Assembly: GCA_963823555.1 (NCBI GenBank)
Contig: CAWGMA010000002.1
Span: 608,001 to 672,000 of the forward strand
Length of the DNA: 64,000 nucleotides
Reading direction: 5' to 3'
DNA from: Candidatus Eiseniibacteriota bacterium
GTDB lineage: Bacteria > Eisenbacteria > RBG-16-71-46 > CAVPCR01
The translations under genes were made by a program, and so were the position numbers. This document shows positions 1 through 45,858 of this stretch, in pieces (positions within the stretch are counted from its first letter, which is position 1; every line of letters begins with the position of its first letter). A model generated the notes under the pieces. That model had not been told where the DNA came from. It saw nothing but the letters and a program-made list of their open reading frames with translations, and made no database searches.

Positions 1-1681
1 CGATGTCGCGCCGCGCGACCTCTTGCCCTCCTTCATCTATATCGCCGGCGAGCACGATCTCCCCGAGGGCAGCCTCGATCTGCCCTGGGCCAGGCGCCGT
101 CGCTACGGGGTCGGCGAGTTCGCCCGCGAGCGCGGTGCGGAGGTGCCGGGGCGGGTCGTCGCCTCCGCCAAGTCGTGGCTACGCCATGCCGGCGTCGATC
201 GCACATCGCCGCTCCTGCCCTGGGAAGCGCCCGAGGATGTCGAGCGGCTGTCGCCGCTCGTGGCACAGCAGCGCATCCTCGAGCATCTCCGCGACACCTG
301 GAACGCGCGCGCCGCGGAGAAGAATCTCCGCCTCGAGAAGCAGGAGGTGTATCTCACCGTTCCCGCCTCCTTCGACGCGGCGGCACGCGAGCTCACCGCC
401 CGCGCGGCGGCGGAGGCCGGTTTCGAGCACGTCACGCTCATCGAGGAACCGCAGGCCGCGTTCTACGCCTGGCTCGATCACCTGGGCGAGTCCTGGCGCG
501 AGAAGGTCGAGGTGGGCGATCTCGTCCTCGTCTGCGATGTCGGGGGCGGCACCACCGACCTCAGCCTGATCGCTGTCTCCGAGGAGGCGGGCAGCCTCGT
601 CCTCGAGCGCGTCGCCGTGGGTGATCACCTCCTTCTCGGCGGCGACAACATGGATCTCGCGCTCGCGCACGCCGTGGCGGCGAAGCTCGCGCGCGACGGG
701 CACAAGCTCGATGGCTGGCAGATGCGGAGCCTGTGGCACAGCTCGCGCGCCGCCAAGGAGCGGCTCCTGGCCGATGAAACGGTGACGAGCGAGCCGATCG
801 TCGTCCTGGGGCGCGGCTCCAGGCTGATCGGCGGCACGATCCGCACCGAGCTCACGCGCGAGGAAGTGGTGAGCGTGCTCGTCGATGGTTTCTTCCCGGT
901 CTGCGCGGCGAGCGATCGGCCGCATGCCGAGTCGAAGAGCGGCATGCGCGAGCTTGGCCTGCCCTACGAGGCCGATCCCGCCGTGACCCGCCACATCGCC
1001 TGGTTCCTGGCGCGCCATGCGCCGGAGGGCGAGAACGGGCGGCGCCTGCCGACTGCGGTTCTCATGAACGGCGGCGTCATGAAGTCGCCCGCGCTCGCGG
1101 GGCGAGTGATGGAGGTGCTCGGTGGCTGGGCGGGTCAGCCCCTCAAGCTCCTGGAGAGCGCCGATCTCGATCTCGCGGTGGCGCGCGGTGCGGCCTACTA
1201 CGGGCTCGCGCGGCGCGGGCGGGGCGTTCGCATCCGCGGCGGCACGGCGCGTGCCTATTACATCGGCATCGAAACCGCGATGCCCGCCGTGCCCGGTGTG
1301 CCCGCCCCGCTCAAGGCGGTGTGCGTGGCGCCCTTCGGCATGGAGGAGGGAAGCGAGGCGGCGCTCCGCGATCGCGAGTTCGGCCTCGTCGTCGGCGAAC
1401 CGGTCGCGTTTCGCCTCCTCGCCTCGAGCGTGCGCCGCGACGATGGGATCGGCGCCGTGGTCGAGAGCTGGGAGTTCGACGATCTCGAGGAGCTCGAACC
1501 CGTCGTGGCCACCCTGCCTGCCGCCGAGGGGACCGGCGGGACCACGGTTCCGGTGCGGATCGTGTCGCGCGTGACGGAGATCGGCACGCTCGAGATCTGG
1601 TGCGTCGCCCGCGATGCGGCCGACCGCCGCTGGAAGCTGGAGTTCAACGTGCGCGAGCAGGTGACGGAGCAACCAAGATGA
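1..1681 (+). CDS. Hsp70/DnaK-family protein (atypical), 5' end outside window
   Basis: Hsp70 motifs LTVPASFD, LIEEPQAAFY, VCDVGGGTTD, LLLGGDNMD and LAVARGAAYY in the ORF 23..1681; the N-terminal GIDLGTT motif lies upstream of the window. Confidence 0.9.
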   Translation, partial: DVAPRDLLPSFIYIAGEHDLPEGSLDLPWARRRRYGVGEFARERGAEVPGRVVASAKSWLRHAGVDRTSPLLPWEAPEDVERLSPLVAQQRILEHLRDTWNARAAEKNLRLEKQEVYLTVPASFDAAARELTARAAAEAGFEHVTLIEEPQAAFYAWLDHLGESWREKVEVGDLVLVCDVGGGTTDLSLIAVSEEAGSLVLERVAVGDHLLLGGDNMDLALAHAVAAKLARDGHKLDGWQMRSLWHSSRAAKERLLADETVTSEPIVVLGRGSRLIGGTIRTELTREEVVSVLVDGFFPVCAASDRPHAESKSGMRELGLPYEADPAVTRHIAWFLARHAPEGENGRRLPTAVLMNGGVMKSPALAGRVMEVLGGWAGQPLKLLESADLDLAVARGAAYYGLARRGRGVRIRGGTARAYYIGIETAMPAVPGVPAPLKAVCVAPFGMEEGSEAALRDREFGLVVGEPVAFRLLASSVRRDDGIGAVVESWEFDDLEELEPVVATLPAAEGTGGTTVPVRIVSRVTEIGTLEIWCVARDAADRRWKLEFNVREQVTEQPR

Positions 1682-4602
1682 CAACCACGATGTCCGGCGA
1701 CGACAGAGAGCGCTCGCGCTATCTGGTGGGGATCGATCTCGGCACCACCAACTCGGCGGTCGCGTACATCGACACCCGCGAGCGAACCGGTGACACGCCT
1801 CGAGTCCACGGCTTCGACGTGCCGCAGCTCGTGGCCGAAGGCGACACCCAGCCGCGATCCACCTTGCCATCCTTCCTCTACCTGCCGGGCGCTCACGAGC
1901 TGCCCGCGGGGGCCACGCGCTTGCCGTGGGATCCGGCACGCGATCACGCGGTCGGCGAGTTCGCGCGCCGGCAGGGGGCGCGCGTGCCGGCGCGTCTCGT
2001 CACCTCGGCCAAGTCGTGGCTCTGCCATGGCGGCGTCGATCGCACCGCCCGCATCCTGCCCTGGGGCGATGCCAGCGATGAGGTGGCGCGACTGTCCCCG
2101 GTCGAGGCCTCGAGCCGCTATCTCGCCCACATGCGCGAGGCGTGGAATCACGCCATCGCGGGCGGCGACGAATCTCTGTTCCTCGAGCGACAGGAGGTCG
2201 CGCTCACGGTCCCCGCTTCGTTCGACGAGGTGGCGCGCGAGCTCACGCTCGAGGCGGCGCGCCAGGCGGGTCTCACCCGGGTGACGATGATCGAGGAGCC
2301 GCAGGCGGCCTTCTATGCCTGGATCGTCGGCCATGAATCGTCGTGGCGGGAGTCATTGCACGCCGGGCAGGTCATCCTGGTCTGCGATGTCGGCGGCGGT
2401 ACCACCGACTTCACCCTGATCGTCGTCGATGAGGGGCAGAAGGGCCTCCGCTTCGAGCGCGTCGCCGTCGGCGAGCACCTGCTTCTCGGCGGGGACAACA
2501 TGGATCTCGCGCTCGCGCGCCGGGTCGAGGAGCGGCTCACCGGGAAGACCGGGAAGCTCGAGCCGCAAGCCTGGGCCGGGCTCGTGCACGCCGCGCGTCT
2601 CGCCAAGGAGGATCTGCTCGCCGAGGAGTCCGGCGCGCCCACGACCGTGCCCATCACCCTCCTCGGCAAGTCGACGAGCGTGGTCGGCGGTTTGCTCCGC
2701 GACGAGCTCGCCCGCGACGAGACCGCGGAGACGATTCTCTCGGGGTTCTTCCCCCTGGTGCCGCCGGATGCCGAGCCGGAGCGACGGAAGGCCGGCTTTT
2801 CCGAATTCGGATTGCCGTACGTCGCCGATGCGGCCGTGACGAAGCATCTCGCCTCGTTCCTGCGCCGGCATCGCGACGCGGCGGCCGAGATCAACCCGAG
2901 GAGCGTCTCGAAGACGGGCCTGGTGCGTCCCGATGCCATCCTCTTCAACGGGGCGGCGCTCACACCCGAGCCCCTGCGTCATCGCGTGCGCGATGCCATC
3001 GCCCAGTGGTTCAAGGGCGAGGATCCCGCGTACGAGCCGGTGCTGCTCACGAGCCCGAGCCTCGCCCTGGCCGTGGCGCGGGGTGCCGCCTACTACGGGC
3101 ACGTGCGCCGCGGCAAGGGTGTGCGCATCCATGGCGGGAGCGCGCGCGGGTACTACGTCGGCATCGATCTCCAGGCGGCGCCGCCGGAGGCGGCCCAGGC
3201 GGTGGCGGGGCTCGCGGATCCGGTCGCCGTCGTGTCGGTGGTCCGGCGCGGCACCGAGGAGGGCACCACGGTCGAGCTCGATCGTCCCTTCGAGGCGCAC
3301 GTCAACCGACCGGTGGCCTTCAACCTCTACTCCTCGAGCGTGCGCACCGATCCGACCGGTGATCTCGTCGTCGTCGAGCGCGACGCGGTGGTGCCGCTGC
3401 CGCCGATTCGCACCCTCCTCCGCTTTGGCAAGAAGACGGGAGAGCGGCGGCTGCCGGTCAGGATCGGCGCCCGGCTCACCGAGCTCGGGACGCTCGACAT
3501 CTACTGCTTTTCCAAGGAGACCGAGCACCGCTGGCGCCTCGAGTTCCAGCTCCGCGACGCGATGGCGGCCGCCGCCGAGGGCGAGGCGGCTCCCGGCGGC
3601 ATCGAGGATCGCGGCGTGACGATCGACGAGTCGATCGTCGAGGGGCTGGATGCCGTGATACGCGCCTGCTTCGATCCGACATGGGAGGGCGAGCCGATCC
3701 CGCCGGCGCGCGTCATGCGCGAGCTCCGCACCGTTCTCGATCTCGAGAAGGAGGAGTGGCCGCTTCCCGTCCTGCGCAAGCTCGGCGAGCTACTCTTGAA
3801 GGTGCGCGAGTCCCGGCGGAAGAGTGCGGCGCACGACGCGCGCTGGACCAACCTCGCCGGCTACGCCCTCCGCCCGGGCTTCGGCTATCCGATGGACGAC
3901 TGGCGGTTGAAGGAGCTGTGGAAGATCTGGCACGCGGGCATCCTGCATCCCGGCGACGAGCAATGTCGCACCGAGTGGTGGATCCTGTGGCGGCGTGTGG
4001 CGGGCGGTCTTTCGCAGGGGCAGCAGGAGCAGATCCATGCCCAGCTCGCGCCCTCGTTGGTTGCCGGCCCGGCCAAGCGCTCGAAGGAAGGGAAGCGCCT
4101 CGGCAAGCAGGAACAGGTCGAGATGTGGCGGTGCGCGGTGAGCCTCGAGGAGCTCGATCGCGCGCGCAAGGTGGATTACGGTCAGGCGCTCGCCGATCGC
4201 GTCGAGCGCGGAGCGACCGCGGCGGATCTGTGGGCGCTCGGCCGGGTCGGGGCGCGCGTGCCGTTCCACGGCCCCGCCAATCAGGTGGTGAACCGGCGCG
4301 CGGTCGAGGGCTGGATCCGGCGCCTGGTAGTCGGGGAGTGGCGCCTGCCGGAGGCGACGGCGGTGGCGCTCGCGCACATGGCGCGGCGCACGGGCGACCG
4401 GGAGCGCGACATCGACGAGGGCTTGCGCGCCGAGGCGGCCGAGAAGATCGCGCGAGCGGCAGCAGGGGCGGAGGGGAAGACGAAGCACGCGTTCGAGCGG
4501 GCGCGTGTGCTCGTTCTCGAGGGCGGCGAGCTCGAGCGCGAGGAGGCGAGCGAGGCCTTCGGCGAGGCGCTGCCGGCGGGGCTGGTGCTGGTGGGGGAGT
4601 GA
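1678..4602 (+). CDS. Hsp70-family protein with long C-terminal DUF3731-like extension
   Basis: VGIDLGTTNS, LTVPASFDE and CDVGGGTTD motifs; C-terminal region WTNLAGYALRPGFGYPMDDWR...EWWILWRRVAGGL; ATG overlaps the upstream TGA (ATGA). Confidence 0.9.
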   Translation: MTTTMSGDDRERSRYLVGIDLGTTNSAVAYIDTRERTGDTPRVHGFDVPQLVAEGDTQPRSTLPSFLYLPGAHELPAGATRLPWDPARDHAVGEFARRQGARVPARLVTSAKSWLCHGGVDRTARILPWGDASDEVARLSPVEASSRYLAHMREAWNHAIAGGDESLFLERQEVALTVPASFDEVARELTLEAARQAGLTRVTMIEEPQAAFYAWIVGHESSWRESLHAGQVILVCDVGGGTTDFTLIVVDEGQKGLRFERVAVGEHLLLGGDNMDLALARRVEERLTGKTGKLEPQAWAGLVHAARLAKEDLLAEESGAPTTVPITLLGKSTSVVGGLLRDELARDETAETILSGFFPLVPPDAEPERRKAGFSEFGLPYVADAAVTKHLASFLRRHRDAAAEINPRSVSKTGLVRPDAILFNGAALTPEPLRHRVRDAIAQWFKGEDPAYEPVLLTSPSLALAVARGAAYYGHVRRGKGVRIHGGSARGYYVGIDLQAAPPEAAQAVAGLADPVAVVSVVRRGTEEGTTVELDRPFEAHVNRPVAFNLYSSSVRTDPTGDLVVVERDAVVPLPPIRTLLRFGKKTGERRLPVRIGARLTELGTLDIYCFSKETEHRWRLEFQLRDAMAAAAEGEAAPGGIEDRGVTIDESIVEGLDAVIRACFDPTWEGEPIPPARVMRELRTVLDLEKEEWPLPVLRKLGELLLKVRESRRKSAAHDARWTNLAGYALRPGFGYPMDDWRLKELWKIWHAGILHPGDEQCRTEWWILWRRVAGGLSQGQQEQIHAQLAPSLVAGPAKRSKEGKRLGKQEQVEMWRCAVSLEELDRARKVDYGQALADRVERGATAADLWALGRVGARVPFHGPANQVVNRRAVEGWIRRLVVGEWRLPEATAVALAHMARRTGDRERDIDEGLRAEAAEKIARAAAGAEGKTKHAFERARVLVLEGGELEREEASEAFGEALPAGLVLVGE

Positions 4603-4763
4603 TGGCGAGTCCAGTGCTTCGCCTTTGCGTAAATGTTGCGAGCTCGGCTTTGCGAACCCAGTTTCGCGAAGTGTGATTGGCGAAGTGGTTATGCAGCGAG
4701 TTGATGGGCGGCGATCCGTGTGTGTGCCGGCCGCAGAAATATGCTCGTGGATGCAGAAAGTGC

Positions 4764-4792
4764 TTGCTCGGCGATGGCGACATCGTTAGTCT
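4764..4792 (+). promoter_or_regulatory. Putative sigma70 promoter of the HNH gene, with a palindrome in the spacer
   Basis: TTGCTC-17 bp-TAGTCT; the spacer contains CGATG-gcga-CATCG; RBS GAAGGAG precedes ATG 4850. Confidence 0.45.
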
Positions 4793-4849
4793 GATTGCGA
4801 GTTTCCCTCCCCGCGACAATTCAGCAAGACCCCCGGAAGGAGCATCGCC

Positions 4850-6306
4850 ATGTCGACCTCCGTTCCCGTGGTTGTGCCCGATCGTGTCGCGCCCACGCTT
4901 CCTCCCACCAATCTGACAGCCGAGACCCTGCACACGGAGTTCCTCCGCCAGGCCCGGGTCGCGAGCTGCAACACGTGGCGGCTCCTGGTCCTCATCCGGG
5001 AGATGGATGCCTGCGAGGGCTACGAGCACTTCGGGTGCACCACCCTCGCTCATTACCTCGAGCTCGTCTGCGGCATCACCGGGGTCGCGGCCCGGGAGCG
5101 GATCCGGGTCGCGTTCGCGCTCGAGTCGTTGCCGGCGCTCGAGGCGGCGCATTGCGGTGCGGCGAGCTCTCGTACTCCAAGGTGAGGGCGGTGACGCGGG
5201 TGGCGACGGCGGAGACGGAGGGGGAGTGGCTCCGTGCGGCGCGGGAGCGGACGGCGGAGGAGCTCGAGGTGATGGCGGCGCGGGCGACGCGGGGGGAGCC
5301 GACGAGGAGGCGGCTCCTCACGAAGGCGGTCAACGCGCACACGACGCGGATGGTGGTGGATCTCCCGGCGGAGGAGATGATGGTGGTGATGCGGGCGCTG
5401 GAGCGGATCCGGCGTGAGGCTGGCGGGAGCCTCTCGGGGTCGGAGGCGCTCGTCTACCTGGCGGCGGACTCGCTCTCGGGGGAGGTGGGGGAGGTCCGGA
5501 CGGCGGAGCGCTACGAGGTGGTGGTGCACGTGGGCGAGGATGGCGGGAGCTGGGTCGAGACCGACGACGCGGCGGGGGAAGCGCCGTTACCGCGGGAGGT
5601 CGTCGAGCGGCTCCTCTGCGACTGTGCGCTCCGGGTGGTCAGGGAGGGGAAGGAGGGGCTCGCGGCGAGCCGTCGCACGCGCACGGTGCCCGAGGTGACA
5701 CGGCGCGCGGTGGCGCTCCGCGATGGGCACCGCTGCCGGGTCCCGGGCTGCCGGCGGCGGCTGTGGCTCGACCTCCATCATCTCGTGCCGGTGTGGGAGG
5801 GCGGGCGGCATGTGCGCTCGAATCTCGTCTACCTCTGCCGGTTCCACCATCAGCTGGTGCACGCGGGGCTCTTGCGCTGCGAGCGGGTGGAGGGGGAACT
5901 CCGGTTCGTGGCGGTGCGGGGTGAGCGATGGGTCATGGGAGAAGCCGGGGCGATGGGAGACGAGGAGTTCTGGGAGTGGCTCCGGGAGGCGGAGGCGGGG
6001 GCTGAGGATGCGGAGTCGGAGCCGATGGAGAAGATGGAGACGATGGAAGCCGTGGTGACCGCAGGCGGGGACCCGGAGGAGCTGCGCTCGACTTACTACC
6101 GCTCGCGGCACCGGCGGCCGTGGCAGGCGCACGAGCGGCGGGCGGCCTACCGTGTTTCCGCGGAAACATCGGCCGGCCGCGTTCCAGCGGAAACACCTCC
6201 AGTATATGTTTCCGCGGAAACATCCCGCCGAGTTCCGGTGACACCCCCGGCCATGTTCCAGCGGAAACAGCTCGCAGAACTCTCTCAAGGGCGGAGTTCT
6301 CGCTGA
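4850..6306 (+). CDS. DUF222-domain HNH endonuclease (one frameshift near 5150)
   Basis: ORF 4850..5185 (ARERIRVAFALESLP) continues in another frame as GELSYSKVRAVTRVA; ERYEVVVHV and RLLCDC motifs; HNH RDGHRCRVPGC...HHLVPVWEGG...NLVYLCRFHHQLVH. Confidence 0.85.
6153..6269. repeat. Array of four 15-18 bp palindromic repeats, GTTTCCGCGGAAACA / GTTCCAGCGGAAACA
   Basis: Copies start at 6154, 6181, 6208 and 6255; 6153-6168 and 6206-6223 are perfect palindromes; the first three have a 27-bp period. Confidence 0.9.
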
Positions 6307-8949: not shown

Positions 8950-10941
8950 ATGCCCCGGACCACCGCTCCATCTCCGCCCCGGCGCCGTCGCCAGGCCAAG
9001 CCCCCGGATGCCGTCACCGGTCGCGTGCGCGCGCATGATCCCTTCGAGCTCATACGCTGGCTGGCCCTGAGCCAGCCTGATCCGCGAAAGGCGCTCGCCG
9101 AGCTGGTGCAGAACAGCCTCGACGCGAACGCGCATCGCATCCGTGTGACGCGGCTCCGCGAGAAGGGTTGCACCTGCCTCCGCATCTTCGATGACGGCAC
9201 GGGCGTGATCCCGGAGATGGATCGGACCGAGGCGCTCCGCTACATCGCGACTCACATCGGCCACAGCAGGAAGCGCGACCTCTCCCCGGAACAGCGCCTC
9301 CAGCTCATGACCCAGGGGCAGTATGGCATCGGTCTCCTCGGGTTCTGGAGTCTGGGGCAGACGCTCGAGATGCGGACGAGCGTTCCGGGGCAGCGCGCGC
9401 ATCGCCTCGTTCTCCACCGCGACCGCGCCGACTACCTGATCGAGCCCTTGCGCGGCCGGTTGCCACTCGATGAGCTGTGGACCGAGATCGTGATCGTGGA
9501 CCTGCACCGCGGCGCGCTTGGAGCTCTGTCAGGCCGGCGAGCCGCCGACTACCTGGCAGCGGAGCTCCGCGGGCAACTCCTCGCCCGCGCGGTCGAGCTC
9601 CTCGTCGAGGACCGCCTGTCTCGTGGCAGAGCCCAGCGGCTCGTGCCGGTCAAGCCACCGCGGTTTCTTGGCGAGCAGCTCGAGGGGATCGGCCCGGTGG
9701 ATGTACCGGGTCACCCGCCCGTGCGCTTCGAGATCTATCTGAGCGGCGAGGAAGCCGCTGCCGGTGCCGACGAACCGCGCGGACTCGCGGTCTATGCCGC
9801 GGGAACGCTCGTTGCCGAGAGCTTCCACGCGCTTGCCTCGCTCGGGCTCGACCGGCCACCGTGGAATGACACGCGACTCTCGGGCATGGTCGACTTTCCC
9901 GGCTTCCAGGTCGCGCCGGGAAGCCGGCGCGGGATCGTTATCGATGACGCCGCGGAGAACTTCTCCCGCGCTCTGCGCGTCGTCGAGCCGGTGCTCACGG
10001 AACTCCTCGCCGACATCGAGCGACGGCGCGCCGACGAGTTCGATCGCTCGCTCATCCGCGACCTGCAACGCGCCTTCCGTGATTTCTATCGCCAGCGCCC
10101 GCGCTTCGCGTTGTTGCCCGTCGATGGTGGACGCGATCGCGGCGCGGGTCCAGGTGGGAAGGAGACCACCGGGGGCGAGGGCGGTGACGGTCGCGGCGAT
10201 GATCGTGGTCCGTCGCCGGGTGCCGACTCTCAAGAGCCATCCCAGGCGTCGGGCTCCCCCGAGCGGGAAGAGGATGTGTCGATCCCGCTCTCGACCGAGA
10301 CCGCGCATCTCTTTCCGCCCGGTCCGCTCATCGCGGTGCGTATCGTCCCCGCGATCGTCCGCGTCGAGTGCGGCGGCGAGCGCCGCGTGCGCGCGATCGC
10401 CCTCGATGCCACCGAGCGCGTGATCGTGGACGCAGTCGAGTTCCGATGGTCGGTCGACGGCCCGATCGGATTCCTGGTCCATGCCGAGGGTGATATCACC
10501 GGCGCCAGCATGCGCTTCCGCGCCGCGAGCGAGGCGGCGGAGGGCGCGCTCACGGCTGTCGCGAGCGCGGGTGGGCGGGAGGCGCACGCCGAGGCCCCGG
10601 TCGAGGTGCTGTTCGAGCTCCCGGGATCCGGTCGGACCGATGAGGGCATCCCGGAGCCGGAATTCGTGCATCAGCCCGGCGCGGGATGGCGATCGCGAAT
10701 GCAGGGCGGCCAATGGCAGGTCAACTCGGGTCATCGCGAGTACCGCGCCATCGCCGAGCAGCCAGCGCTCAAGCTGCGCTACCTGGCCATGCTCTTCGCG
10801 AAGGAAGTCGTGCTCCGTAGCCACCAGGATCCCCGACTGGAGAAGCCGCTCGAACAGCTCATCGAGGTTGCGGCCTATGCCGATCGCAATCTCGCCGGGA
10901 AGCGCGGTGCGCGGCGGCGAGGCAAGATCGAGGAGGGATGA
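8950..10941 (+). CDS. GHKL-family ATPase (HATPase_c_3/MORC-like) with C-terminal Ig-like region
   Basis: ALAELVQNSLDA (N box), IFDDGTG (G1) and GQYGIGLLG (G2) motifs. Confidence 0.75.
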   Translation: MPRTTAPSPPRRRRQAKPPDAVTGRVRAHDPFELIRWLALSQPDPRKALAELVQNSLDANAHRIRVTRLREKGCTCLRIFDDGTGVIPEMDRTEALRYIATHIGHSRKRDLSPEQRLQLMTQGQYGIGLLGFWSLGQTLEMRTSVPGQRAHRLVLHRDRADYLIEPLRGRLPLDELWTEIVIVDLHRGALGALSGRRAADYLAAELRGQLLARAVELLVEDRLSRGRAQRLVPVKPPRFLGEQLEGIGPVDVPGHPPVRFEIYLSGEEAAAGADEPRGLAVYAAGTLVAESFHALASLGLDRPPWNDTRLSGMVDFPGFQVAPGSRRGIVIDDAAENFSRALRVVEPVLTELLADIERRRADEFDRSLIRDLQRAFRDFYRQRPRFALLPVDGGRDRGAGPGGKETTGGEGGDGRGDDRGPSPGADSQEPSQASGSPEREEDVSIPLSTETAHLFPPGPLIAVRIVPAIVRVECGGERRVRAIALDATERVIVDAVEFRWSVDGPIGFLVHAEGDITGASMRFRAASEAAEGALTAVASAGGREAHAEAPVEVLFELPGSGRTDEGIPEPEFVHQPGAGWRSRMQGGQWQVNSGHREYRAIAEQPALKLRYLAMLFAKEVVLRSHQDPRLEKPLEQLIEVAAYADRNLAGKRGARRRGKIEEG

Positions 10942-11660: not shown

Positions 11661-11912
11661 CTAGCCCGGTGCCTGGTCGAGGAGTGACGCCCGCGCCAGC
11701 ACCGCCCGCGCCGTCGTGCTGAGACCGCCGGCATCCAGCGTGCGCTCCAGGACTCGGCTCGCCATCTGCCGGCTGAAGAGCTCGTCCCGCTCCGCCGGCG
11801 CCAGATCGAAGAAGGTTGCCGATGGGCGGATGCCGCCCGTCGACGGATCCCGCTCGCGGAAGGCGCTGGCTGCGATCTCGATGAGGACATCCATCTCTTC
11901 ACGCGGGTTCAT
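11661..11912 (-). CDS. Small hypothetical protein, coupled to the sigma factor gene
   Basis: ATG overlaps the upstream stop (ATGA); 83 aa. Confidence 0.6.
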   Translation of the reverse strand: MNPREEMDVLIEIAASAFRERDPSTGGIRPSATFFDLAPAERDELFSRQMASRVLERTLDAGGLSTTARAVLARASLLDQAPG

Positions 11913-12535
11913 GGCATTGCCTCCACCAACGCGACCCCGGCCCGCTCGAGGCACTCCGCCATGAGCCGGCGTGCCCTCACGATGTTCTGGAGAAAAGTGT
12001 TGGTCTTCATCTTGACGGTGGTGGCCAGGGCGCGGTCAGGAGAGCGACCGGCATCCTGGATGCGGGCGTTGAGCGCGGCACGCGGCCGCTCCGGCAACCG
12101 GTCGATGCAGCCGAGGATGAGTCGGCGCAGGTTCGGGTCGGCGGGCGGATCGGGATCCGTCTGCGCTTCGGGCAGTCGCTCGAGCGACTCGAGATCGAGG
12201 GGTGTGGTCCGGCCGAGTCGTCTCACCTCGCCGAGGGCGAGGTTGCGCGTGATCCGGATGGCATAGCGGAGCGACGCGTTCCGCCCGCTCAGGTCGAGCG
12301 TCGGAGCGAGGACCCACATGCGGAGGAGTCCCTCCTGCAGCACGGCCTCGATATCCACGTCGCGGGCGAAGGTCTCGAGGCTACGGCGCAGCGGGATCTC
12401 GGCCGAACGGAGCCAGTCGGCGAACGCTTCCGGGTCGCCGCCGCGCACGCGCGCGAAGGCGCGATCGAGATCGCTATCGACCTCGATCGCCTTCGTCTCC
12501 CGCGGTTCCGGATGGCCGTCGGGCGGAGCAGACAT
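11909..12535 (-). CDS. ECF-type RNA polymerase sigma factor
   Basis: RVRGGDPEAF, DIEAVLQEGLLRMW, YAIRITRNLA and CIDRLPERPRAAL...IVRARRLMAECL (sigma regions 2 and 4); ATG 2 bp after the vWA gene stop. Confidence 0.75.
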   Translation of the reverse strand: MSAPPDGHPEPRETKAIEVDSDLDRAFARVRGGDPEAFADWLRSAEIPLRRSLETFARDVDIEAVLQEGLLRMWVLAPTLDLSGRNASLRYAIRITRNLALGEVRRLGRTTPLDLESLERLPEAQTDPDPPADPNLRRLILGCIDRLPERPRAALNARIQDAGRSPDRALATTVKMKTNTFLQNIVRARRLMAECLERAGVALVEAMP

Positions 12536-12537
12536 CT

Positions 12538-14902
12538 CTAGCCTCCAGGCACCATCTCCACCTCGAGACGGAACGTGAGGCCGTCTCGCTCCCAATCCAC
12601 ACTCCGAGGCGCCTCTGGCCAGGGCATGTGGTCCTTCGTCCGGAACGCAAGCCGGAGCGTGAGTCCAGCGGCGTGCTTCCCGCCGCTGGTGCTGAGCTTC
12701 TGATCCACCCTGGCCTCCGCCGTTCCTCCGCCGGCGAGCCGCACATGGATGGGGGTGCGTCTCTTGGGCATCTTGAAGACCGTGGTCGGCGACTCGAACT
12801 CGATCACGAGGAGATCCCCCTCGATGCGGATGCAGCGCGCGGGAATCCTCGGCACGTCTCGCAGATGGAAGAACGACGGCCCGGCATGCATCTCGGGGCC
12901 GGCATCCATCTCGGCCCCGAATCTCCACCCTCCCTTGGCGGTCCTCAGGTAGGACGCCGTGCCGGCGGCCACTCCCGGATGGACACCCGCCCCGCGCATG
13001 GCCATGAGCCCGGCGCCCTCGGCACTCACCCCGTAAGGCAGCTCGACTGCCAGTCGCACCCGGCGCCGCGGATCGCGGGGATCGACGGTCGGGTCCTCGG
13101 CGACGGCGACGAGGCTCGTGCGGCGGCTCGCGATGCGGTGCCGGAGCCCTAGCGCCTCGATCTGCCCGAGCGATTCCTGGCACCTGCGCGCGGCCATGCT
13201 GGCCAGCCGCGGCGAGCCGCATCTCCTCGTCCTCGATCGCCTCGCGGCCGTAGAGCGCCCCGATGGGAATCTGCGTTGATCCGTCAAGATCGGCGCCATC
13301 CCCCGCGGGGACGGTCCACCGCTGCTCCCAGGTCCGGGTTTCCCCGGTCCGGTGCCCGCTGAGCACGAGCTCACCGCCACGCGGGTCGAAGGCCAACGCC
13401 ATCCGCAGCGGCTCGCCGGCGAGCACGTCCCGCGCCCGCGCGGGCGCCTGGCCGATGAGCGCCGAGCCCGAGATCTCGAGATCGGTGAGGATGGGCGCCA
13501 CGGTCGCGGCGAGGAGGCGCGAGGTTGCGCGGTCCAGATCGTACCTGCCGGCGACCAGGAGTTCGATACCGCGTCCAGCCCGTGCCGCCGCCCGCGTGAG
13601 CGAACGGTTGGGAGAGTGCCCGATCCCGACCGTGTGGAGACGCGCGCCCGCCGGGAGATCCTGGAGCACGTGGGCCACGACCTCGTTCTCGAATCCGATG
13701 TAACCGTCGGAGAGGAGCACGACCTGGCGCAGCGAATCCGAGCGCAATGGCGAGAGCGCACGGCGAATCGCGTCCGCCATCTCGGTGCCACCGCGGGCCT
13801 GCAGGGCAGCGAGCTTCTCGATCGCTCGCGCGATGTTCTCGCCGCTGGCCGCCACGGGCCCGCCCACCAGCGTGGTGGTATCCCTGGCGAAGGCCAGGAT
13901 CTCGAAGCGATCATCGGGTGTGAGGCTTTGCAGGAGCCGGCTCGCCACCGCCTTGGCTGCCGCCAGGGGCTTTCCGCTCATCGATCCGCTGGCGTCGATG
14001 AGGATCGTGAGGTCGCGCGCGAACGCCGGCGCGGAGATGGGTGGAGTGATGGTGAGGAGTCCGTAGCGACCGCCATCGCCGGATAGTCCGGGGCCCATCA
14101 CCAGTCGCGCCTCGAGCGTGCTCGATCCCGCCTGCCAGGTGATGACCACGTCGCGATCCAGACGGGCCGGTTGCTCGAGGCGGACCACGGCTCCCTTGCG
14201 TGGCGGAGCGGCGCCCGCCCCTCCGCTGCCATCGCCAGCATCGGCCACGATGATGTCATGGCTCGACGATTGCGGCGCGAGTGTCCCGCCATCGCCGTCG
14301 GCGATCGCCAGCTCGAGCGAGAGCCGCGCCGGGGTGCCGCTGGCATCCGCGCGCTCGGCGGCGAGCCGATCGGCGTCGGGGACGCGGCCCGCCGCGCCCT
14401 CGTAGCGCACCCCGACGACGGTGGGGAATCGGTACTCCCACTCCGCGCGGGAGGTTTCGAGAGCCGGATGGAAGCCCAGGGGATGGAGGACGTCGATCTC
14501 GACCCGGACCTCGGCGCCCGGCGGCAGGCTACCGAGCTGTTGCGTGAAGGTGTCGGCGCGCTCCTGGGTGAGGAGGCCGGCGATGCGACCTTCCGCCAGC
14601 GCGTGCTGATAGGTTTTCTGCGCATCCTCGCAAGTTTCGACGTGGCCGCGGATGATCTTGTCGCCGCAGTGGATCGTGTAGCCGATGACCGCGCCGTCGG
14701 CGGGGAGCGGGAGCGTGTAGAGCACCTCGAGTGGCTCGGCGTGGGGGTTCGTGTAGTGCTGCTCGAAGGTGGTCCGGGCGAGGCCGGCCGCCGCATGGGC
14801 GCGGATCGCCGCCCCCGCGAGCGGGAAGGTGCGCCCGTCCACGGCGACAAGGCCGGTGGGGGCGGGTGGGGCGGGTCTGGGTTCGAGTCCGGTCGCTGGC
14901 AT
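12538..14902 (-). CDS. VIT + vWA domain protein (frameshift near 13190)
   Basis: VIT-like QHYTNPHAEPLEVLYTLPLP; MIDAS LIDASGSMSG, GGTEM and LLSDG; continues in the other frame as LGLRHRIASRRTSLVAV to TAG at 12538. Confidence 0.85.
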
Positions 14903-45789: not shown

Positions 45790-45858
45790 CGAACAGCGGA
45801 AACAAGGCTCCTTGGATGTTTCAGCGGAAACACGTTTCCGGGTGTTCCAGCGGAAACA
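45790..45858. repeat. Second array of (GTT)CAGCGGAAACA palindromic repeats, intergenic
   Basis: Cores CAGCGGAAAC at 45794, 45822 and 45848; the third unit is identical to units at 6181 and 6255. Confidence 0.8.

Follow-up and report, generated by a model that had tools for sequence, protein, structure and literature searches.

Structure of the cassette and of its copies

A DUF222-HNH gene is located between an ATG at position 4850 and the end of its second frame at position 6306 of the window, i.e., the whole analyzed stretch of 64,000 nucleotides, and it is broken near 5147-5160 by a +2 shift as judged against three in-frame paralogs (Table 1). The letters at 5147-5160 are a hybrid of two paralog alleles, and for this reason the frameshift may be an assembly artefact. 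In public reads, no run contained more than 0.19 of the words, and no RNA was among the holders listed. The gene belongs to a cassette of about 1.6 kb, of which five copies (A to E, copy A being the one in the window) are present in the genome (G000; four contigs, 4.62 Mb, 92.5% complete) with 91-95% nucleotide identity and in unrelated surroundings.

Table 1. Coordinates of cassette copy A, its parts and the detached array in the window.
Feature	Positions	Strand	Basis or remark
DUF222-HNH cassette copy A (one of five)	4605..6269	+	blastn and alignment with four paralogs and one internally deleted copy
Left-end short repeats, TTCGCGAA type	4649..4675	.	each copy has 2-4
Likely promoter TTGCTC/TTGATC, 17 nt, TAGTCT	4766..4794	+	by eye, conserved among copies
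5′ gene piece, 111 aa	4850..5185	+	long helix and helix-turn-helix, predicted ParB-type DNA-binding domain
+2 frameshift where paralogs differ	5147..5160	+	paralog alignment
3′ gene piece, 381 aa	5161..6306	+	rest of the predicted ParB-type domain, middle region, HNH, tail
Palindrome 1, perfect, TGTTTCCGCGGAAACA	6153..6168	.	homology with copy C stops 5 bp beyond
Palindrome 2, CGTTCCAGCGGAAACA	6180..6195	.	homology with copy B and the deleted copy stops exactly here
Palindrome 3, perfect, TGTTTCCGCGGAAACA	6207..6222	.	homology with copies D and E stops 1-2 bp beyond
Palindrome 4, other reading frame, TGTTCCAGCGGAAACA	6254..6269	.	
Detached intergenic array: one decayed and two good units, 27 and 26 bp apart	45790..45858	.	

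The predicted recognition helix begins at residue 78 (about window position 5081). In the 3′ piece, a middle region of the type strand-helix-helix is followed by a zinc-type HNH nuclease domain at about 5720-5865 and by an acidic disordered tail, which spans the palindromes. A Pfam search with the two pieces of the window gene resulted in HNH only (E 0.0026, under the cut-off), and PF02720 (DUF222) was unmatched. The promoter was not among the calls of a promoter scan.

The four 16-mers after the HNH part start at distances of 27, 27 and 47 bp, and a decayed fifth unit is located at 6295. Allowing up to two mismatches, the 14-mer was matched six times in the window compared to 0.17 expected matches, and none of 100 shuffles reached six; the remaining two matches form the intergenic pair at 45818 and 45844, with a decayed third unit at 45790. 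Palindromes 1 to 3 are in frame and translate as VSAET or VPAET, and palindrome 4 reads MFQRKQ. The original prediction had described four palindromic units, the first three with a 27-bp period and the fourth out of frame, as well as a second, intergenic array, and all of these could be re-found. The same is true for the arms shared with parS, as 12 of the 16 letters of the unit equal the consensus given there. Its placement of the array in a low-complexity tail had to be corrected, since the array is the right end of the DUF222-HNH cassette.

While the right edge of copy A consists of the palindromes, the left edge is ragged and lies at about 4579-4731, according to which paralog it is aligned with. 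Homology to copy A breaks off at 6173, 6195, 6195, 6223 and 6224, which is 0-5 bp past palindrome 1, 2 or 3 in all five comparisons. Clusters of at least two TTCGCGAA-type words occur only at the five cassette copies. Copy D is flanked by a 20-bp direct repeat consisting of the palindrome and four bases; besides this, no target duplication was found at the five copies, four of them have no left-end palindrome, and no terminal inverted repeats were seen in the cassette. For copies A, B, C and E, no usable clean empty site could be located in the sister-species genome (G001) or in G002. In most compared pairs of relatives, the homology does not end at a palindrome.

The reading frame is intact in copy B (457 aa) and in copy C (509 aa; C1:1650116, minus strand). 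The frameshifts in A, D and E are each located where paralogs differ and are each a hybrid of two alleles, and thus they may all be assembly artefacts. The copies are mosaic, with nine of the ten possible two-versus-three splits present, a pattern which stems from gene conversion or from assembly. A sixth trace is a 345-bp internally deleted copy (C2:373874-374218), which comprises the left end of the cassette up to the ribosome-binding site and the last 140 bp with two palindromes; as it is single, it can be a deletion remnant or a miniature element. In G001, two cassette copies of the GAT type were identified, in which the homology begins exactly at their own palindrome GATCCCGCGGGATC and which carry two further GATCCCGCGGGATC palindromes at the far end, in addition to one copy of the GTT type. 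Furthermore, another multi-copy family is present in G000 (C2:268432, C2:45360, C2:316163, C3:345846, and C4:667800), whose proteins of 640-790 aa combine two DUF222-like helical repeats with an HNH domain; no parS-like palindrome was found within 600 bp of these genes.

Upstream of copy A, two tandem Hsp70-like genes are located at 23-4602, the second of which is fused to DUF3731. The gene following this pair is different in each of the genomes G000 to G003, i.e., the position is a variable slot, and three relatives have other genes and no cassette behind the upstream Hsp70-like gene. No parA was found beside copy A. Downstream, positions 8950-10941 encode a protein of 663 aa, the N-terminal part of which is a GHKL (HATPase_c_3) ATPase domain, while the rest is without annotation. 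A long minus-strand ORF at 11909-14902 looks, by eye, like a VIT/VWA protein that continues into an ECF sigma factor, probably through a frameshift.

Predicted fold and putative cognate palindromes of the protein family

The DUF222-HNH family is very large: of 8,000 scored candidates, at least 3,087 were relatives. An AlphaFold2 model of an intact paralog was calculated from 113 sequences (pLDDT 78, above 90 over residues 21-140), in which helices 66-74 and 78-92 form a helix-turn-helix. The structure comparison proposed in the original prediction was carried out against 48,161 solved chains, and the ParB-parS DNA-binding domain 6S6H was the best match (Z 9.1, rmsd 2.4, 96 residues, residues 37-147), followed by Spo0J 1VZ0 at rank 2 (Z 8.1) and KorB at ranks 5 and 8 (Z 7.5), with SopB, VirB and P1 ParB ranking lower. 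For a helical domain, a Z of 9 in a predicted model is suggestive of a ParB fold but no proof of it. Foldseek resulted in nothing at E ≤ 0.001, with ParB, Spo0J and Noc chains among the weak rows. The hhalign comparison of the profile with an alignment of 24 ParB sequences was not significant (probability 0.6%), and the family profile matched only HNH among the sequences of solved structures. With Pfam HTH_ParB, one distant DUF222-HNH frame was found over the cut-off (G023) and one just under it (G010), and none in G000. The CTPase domain found no match in the model, in which just 36 residues lie ahead of the matched domain, and ParBc was not matched in 28 relatives. Of the idea that DUF222 is a ParB-like domain, the predicted DNA-binding fold (residues 37-147) is thus retained, whereas a CTPase and a significant similarity to the ParB profile are not.

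Residues 277-364 match HNH nucleases structurally, and the catalytic and zinc residues of HNH are invariant in 113 relatives. For the middle domain, a weak ribbon-helix-helix match was obtained (8IMH, Z 3.6). Among 28 close relatives, PF02720 (DUF222) was detected in 19 and HNH in 23; the protein P0002 matches HNH and not PF02720. The atlas neighbours are DUF222/13E12 clusters, and the named relatives, which share 44-54% identity, carry the label Eisenbacteria. Searches of Pfam, NCBIfam and folds did not reveal a DDE, HUH, tyrosine or serine recombinase domain. Similarity to IscB is limited to the HNH domain and far under the cut-off, PADLOC gave weak matches to the HNH stretch only, and by eye no LexA/SOS box is shared by the cassette and the upstream regions of recA, lexA, uvrA/B, recN, ruvB and radA. 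Six relatives (P0044, P0060, P0072, P0074, P0075, and P0105) carry an extra C-terminal PF17782 winged-helix domain, and none of the tested palindrome-derived peptides was found in them.

In 159 related loci (80 from genomes and 79 from metagenomes), the GTT/GAT word was found 97 times in 218 kb of gene sequence compared to twice in 408 kb of distant flank. It is present in 64 of these loci, and many of the 95 loci without it carry other words. In the 97 V[SP]A[EG]T peptides, V is encoded by GTT in 94 cases (background 14%), E by GAA in 70 of 71 (background 34%) and G by GGA in all 26 (background 14%). Of the in-gene sites, 89 of 97 are in one frame, and the word occurs in three frames. The DNA-level signal that the original prediction had proposed is supported by this codon use, in which rare codons are fixed, pointing to selection on the DNA and not on the VSAET peptide; free synonymous variation of the in-frame peptide, which it had considered as the alternative outcome, is not the case. 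The palindromes of other clades, for example CCCTCCGCGGAGGG, GGTTCCGCGGAACC, CCGCCACGTGGCGG, GATCCCGCGGGATC and GCATCACGTGATGC, encode other peptides and have both arms changed together, and some clades have a palindrome with the parS core CACGTG. Several types of the word are found side by side in Woeseiaceae and Acidobacteriota. Variation had been expected at the central 4 bp, but across the relatives it is mostly the outer arms that change. In a distant DUF222-HNH clade (L021, L026, L033, L034, L039, and L040; G023, G029, and G034), palindromes with a CCCGGG core like that of the Noc-binding site occur together with a different helix, WTKAR.

According to passages of PMC7383237, ParB uses R173 to read the outer G of parS, and N178 is in contact with the DNA. 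Residues 78, 79, 82 and 83 of the cassette protein were equated with ParB 173, 174, 177 and 178 by helix boundaries and not by residue-level superposition. In the set of 113 proteins, 16 have Arg-Ile at 78-79; of these, 13 have GAT-type peptides and none has a GTT-type peptide, and none of the 96 other proteins in which the region 78-79 is present has a GAT-type peptide. A tree of 128 relatives was built without the helix-turn-helix and palindrome columns, and the palindrome arm was assigned by a rule of our own to 134 of 178 rows (44 without assignment; six distant rows were dropped). On this tree, the arm changes about 22 times. Column 79 ranks first of 279 for changes on the same branch as the arm (9 observed versus 3.5 expected) and column 83 ranks fourth, while columns 78 and 82 alone reach ranks 59 and 81 and columns 291 and 205 come close to the score of 79. 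The set 78/79/82/83, which was chosen after the table was seen, beats all 150 random sets. Arg79 is present in nine rows, and the second arm letter is G in every one of them. The independent pairs for arm covariation number 2-4, too few for a p value. When a small residue at 79 was set against arm letter C, 10 independent pairs showed no signal. A pairwise logistic ranking of the columns was rejected: other columns came first and clade markers dominated. The original prediction had asked whether changes of the palindrome core covary with the recognition helix; across the 128 relatives, the palindrome arms change with this helix, and these sequence comparisons lend moderate support to a reader and a word that change together.

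Distribution of the palindrome in genomes, host genes and the parS array

In G000, GTTYCMGCKGRAAC was counted 45 times. Based on genes called in this analysis, 14 sites are at cassettes, 7 belong to the parS array, host coding sequence accounts for 5 and other intergenic positions for 19; 38 of the 45 sites lie outside the origin array. For the intergenic sites, 30 were seen and 0.07 expected, and for the host coding sites 5 were seen and 0.29 expected given the proteins and the codon use. The coding controls amounted to 0 versus 0.14 for the reversed word, 0 versus 0.07 for parS and 2 versus 0.51 for the GAT type. Neighbouring sites outside the parS array form 19 pairs, 11 with a distance of 27 bp and two with 26 bp. 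A single array contributes four of the 11 pairs, and a further three come from the homologous ends of copies A and E; a tandem-duplication signature is clear in one array and mixed elsewhere. A detached array with five units at exactly 27 bp lies between convergent genes (C2:583903-584034), and its spacers resemble the spacer at the end of copy B.

The search for carriers of the cassette gene covered 206 genomes of the phylum and scored eight candidates per genome. At least three sites were found in five genomes (45, 13, 6, 4, and 3 sites), all of which carry the cassette gene, in one case as a contig-end fragment. A sixth carrier has two sites, one in its gene and one upstream. The other 200 genomes have 0-2 sites, like the reversed-word control (0-3). 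The genome-wide count named in the original prediction therefore resulted in an enrichment confined to cassette-carrying genomes; as five of the six carriers are close kin, they do not represent six independent tests. GAT-type sites amount to 21 in G001 compared to 0-5 in 40 other genomes, and G001 has 3 GTT sites.

The gene of a DinG-family helicase (proteins 84% identical) contains a 20-bp GTT-type palindrome in G000 and a 20-bp GAT-type palindrome in G001, both centred on the same base, with five pairs changed on both sides and no indel. Behind tRNA-Leu, each of the two genomes has its own type in the same spacer. Because the same helicase codons carry the cassette-type palindrome of each genome, the sites appear, as far as aligned sequences can tell, to have been rewritten in place by the resident cassette type. 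Four of the 15 solo sites of G001 could be aligned (the helicase swap, one G000 near-match, one hairpin, and one without a site), and the exact in-place swap among these 15 is one case plus one shared tRNA spacer. No G000 site was found near the 11 solo sites of G002 and G003. Among the host coding sites compared, three of four arose by indel-free substitution, as in purF and in a secreted-protein gene of G000; the purF site needs just two silent changes and is thus weak alone. The fourth is located within a 17-residue insertion relative to a distant ortholog.

The real parS of G000, TGTTCCACGTGGAACA, is present in 16 copies upstream of parA-parB, about 6 kb from dnaA, on C3, where the single parAB of the genome is located (gene names of this region by eye, ParB confirmed). 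Nine cassette-type sites are interleaved among the 16 parS. The array constitutes a 2.2-kb minisatellite (C3:86451-88622), and all nine cassette-type sites have the same orientation. In the same region, G001 has 33 and G003 20 parS with zero variants, and the mixed array is found in one of the 206 genomes and in none of the other 205. The ParB recognition helix of G000 is that of G001, i.e., the host protein is unchanged. The commonest variant differs from the G000 parS at five positions, and the variant in the array is the commonest dispersed form. That the word could be an ordinary parS clustered at oriC, as considered in the original prediction, holds insofar as nine copies lie within the parS cluster, but the word is not the parS of this genome. 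The simplest reading would be one entry of the word into the parS array, followed by repeat expansion.

Proposed mechanism and comparison with known systems

Because the palindrome stands at the gene end, occurs in 45 genome copies and meets a predicted ParB-like fold, the enzyme likely reads the word and likely spreads it along with itself. We consider it fairly probable that the genes form a multi-copy, likely mobile nuclease cassette, in which the predicted ParB-fold domain reads its own palindrome and the HNH domain nicks nearby. The anatomy of the cassette, the number and ends of its copies, the constraint on the DNA, the association at genome level and the match of the predicted fold are shown by the sequences. 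In detail, a dimer would probably bind the 16-bp palindrome, with the helix-turn-helix residues 78, 79, 82 and 83 reading the outer arms, and the HNH domain would, with somewhat better than even prospects, nick at or near the bound sites. For the recombination route that would follow, the chances are about equal: strand exchange, started by a nick, would take place between two bound sites and move the cassette, and by one event of this kind the word would have entered the parS array and been multiplied there by repeat expansion. The exchange would also leave detached arrays and solo sites as footprints and overwrite similar host sequences with the word of the resident cassette. This mechanism is the best reading of the palindrome ends, the copy-D repeat, the detached arrays with cassette-like spacers, the swaps and the parS entry. 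Left unexplained by it are the ragged left ends of four copies and the relatives with only mid-gene sites.

The fold, codon and covariation results all fit binding without cutting, and the main rival is therefore a protein that binds the palindrome merely as an operator or anchor, for autoregulation or in a domesticated chromosome-organising or regulatory role. Its sites would have spread by ordinary mutation and selection and its gene would have been duplicated by host recombination; a palindrome site in G001 is indeed located about 30 bp upstream of the likely promoter, many relatives have a site inside the gene at fixed codons, and the substitution-only sites in host genes could be selected. 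This rival is nevertheless judged unlikely, since the ends of cassette copies coincide with palindromes, the HNH catalytic residues are invariant, and the host sites in the helicase and purF are in coding sequence and not at promoters. Moreover, a gene that is patchy (6 of 206 genomes) and differs in type between sister species fits a mobile element better.

The sites could also be parS mimics bound by the host ParB, with the cassette exploiting ParB loading and the mixed array representing parS variation, as would agree with the 12 of 16 common letters, the nine copies among the 16 parS upstream of parAB and the parS core CACGTG of some clades. This is improbable, because the identical recognition helix of ParB goes along with a variant-free array of 33 parS in G001, the 20 parS of G003 are pure and a mixed array was found in one of 206 genomes. 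In addition, the arms vary widely among cassette clades and follow the cassette's own helix, and the commonest variant is five letters off the parS of this genome.

Slightly less probable still are single-stranded hairpins (REP- or IS605-like, or RNA stem-loops) that are recognised by structure. Many solo sites are intergenic and near gene ends and tRNA genes, and one G000 site is part of a long perfect palindrome, but a loop is absent and the commonest variant breaks the pairing next to the centre. Symmetry beyond 16-18 bp does not exceed that of shuffled flanks in G000, G002 and the 159 loci, with a weak excess in G001 only, and the fold match is a reader of the double-stranded major groove, with no HUH domain detected. 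A fold-back (hairpin-templated) origin of the sites was rejected as well, being unsupported in G000, G002 and the 159 loci and weak in G001. Finally, the word could have arisen as a side effect of a conserved VSAET peptide together with minisatellite slippage or assembly artefacts, as the 89 of 97 in-gene sites in one frame, the paralog-hybrid-like frameshifts of three of the five copies and their mosaic structure might suggest. This is very improbable and for the family refuted by the fixed rare codons, and it is further opposed by the word in three frames, the 30 intergenic sites versus 0.07 expected, the different peptides encoded by different palindromes in other clades and the presence of the word in many independent assemblies.

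If the reading as a new class of mobile element is true, the family would offer dozens of natural reader-site pairs, like a library, and the long-unexplained 13E12 repeats would be accounted for. An HNH-nuclease-based mobility route would be added, the ParB/Noc specificity code would grow from two sites to a dozen natural pairs or more, and a selfish element would be seen to alter host coding sequence and a bacterial centromere. A cognate site per clade makes the family directly testable. Its mechanism is undescribed in the accessible portions of the literature found, although members mark inversion breakpoints in M. tuberculosis.

The cassette proteins belong to the DUF222 (PF02720)/REP13E12 family, which is often fused to HNH, and both are multi-copy with about 1.5 kb. 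According to the accessible passages, 13E12 members of M. tuberculosis are insertion elements that are induced by DNA damage and have phage attachment sites (PMC3381160), and they are inversion breakpoints (PMC13157036); the family is mentioned in passing in excerpts of PMC3592412 and PMC10589994. The descriptions of DUF222/REP13E12 in these passages are without a DNA-binding fold, a cognate palindrome or a mobility mechanism; here, a fold is predicted and a palindrome is present. No report linking DUF222/13E12-HNH to ParB or to a cognate palindrome was found in the openly accessible text portions.

ParB-parS, Noc-NBS and KorB-OB resemble the cassette in the predicted fold (37-147), the 16-bp palindromic site and the parS-like arms. 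In ParB, specificity lies at the start of the recognition helix (R173; passages of PMC7383237), as appears to be the case here. In contrast to ParB, Noc and KorB, the cassette protein has no CTPase match and no partner ParA, is fused to a nuclease and is multi-copy and patchy, and its sites are dispersed and in-gene with many natural variants rather than two or three. An adjacent parA and sites mostly at the origin, both features of ParABS, are lacking.

RAYT is a single-copy HUH enzyme that acts on hairpins, and IS21, Tn7 and Mu have repeated terminal binding sites. Compared to RAYT, the cassette encodes an HNH enzyme with a predicted duplex-reading fold, is multi-copy and has sites also in coding sequence; instead of a stem-loop with a loop and a free stem, it has a fixed word of 16-18 bp with no excess symmetry beyond it in G000. 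REP/REPIN-RAYT likewise combines a nuclease gene with its own dispersed intergenic palindrome in lineage-specific versions (PMC3337134 and PMC3479197). In comparison with IS21, Tn7 and Mu, repeated sites with fixed spacing at one end are a common trait, and homing HNH endonucleases are likewise site-directed HNH nucleases in a self-spreading cassette. Unlike these endonucleases, the cassette has no intron or intein, is free-standing between genes, carries intact sites and keeps its site instead of destroying it. Classical IS elements differ in that here no DDE, HUH, tyrosine or serine recombinase domain was detected. In G000, the right ends of the cassette are sharp at the palindromes and the left ends ragged, no terminal inverted repeats were seen, and the 20-bp repeat is found at copy D only.

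On this basis, the DUF222-HNH genes are tentatively, and with somewhat less than an even chance, proposed as a new class of mobile element, in which a re-programmable ParB-fold reader would guide an HNH nickase, recombine between its own palindromes, copy the cassette without a known transposase and overwrite host sequences including coding DNA and the parS array. The gene family is already catalogued, and the system itself is new and outside the known classes.
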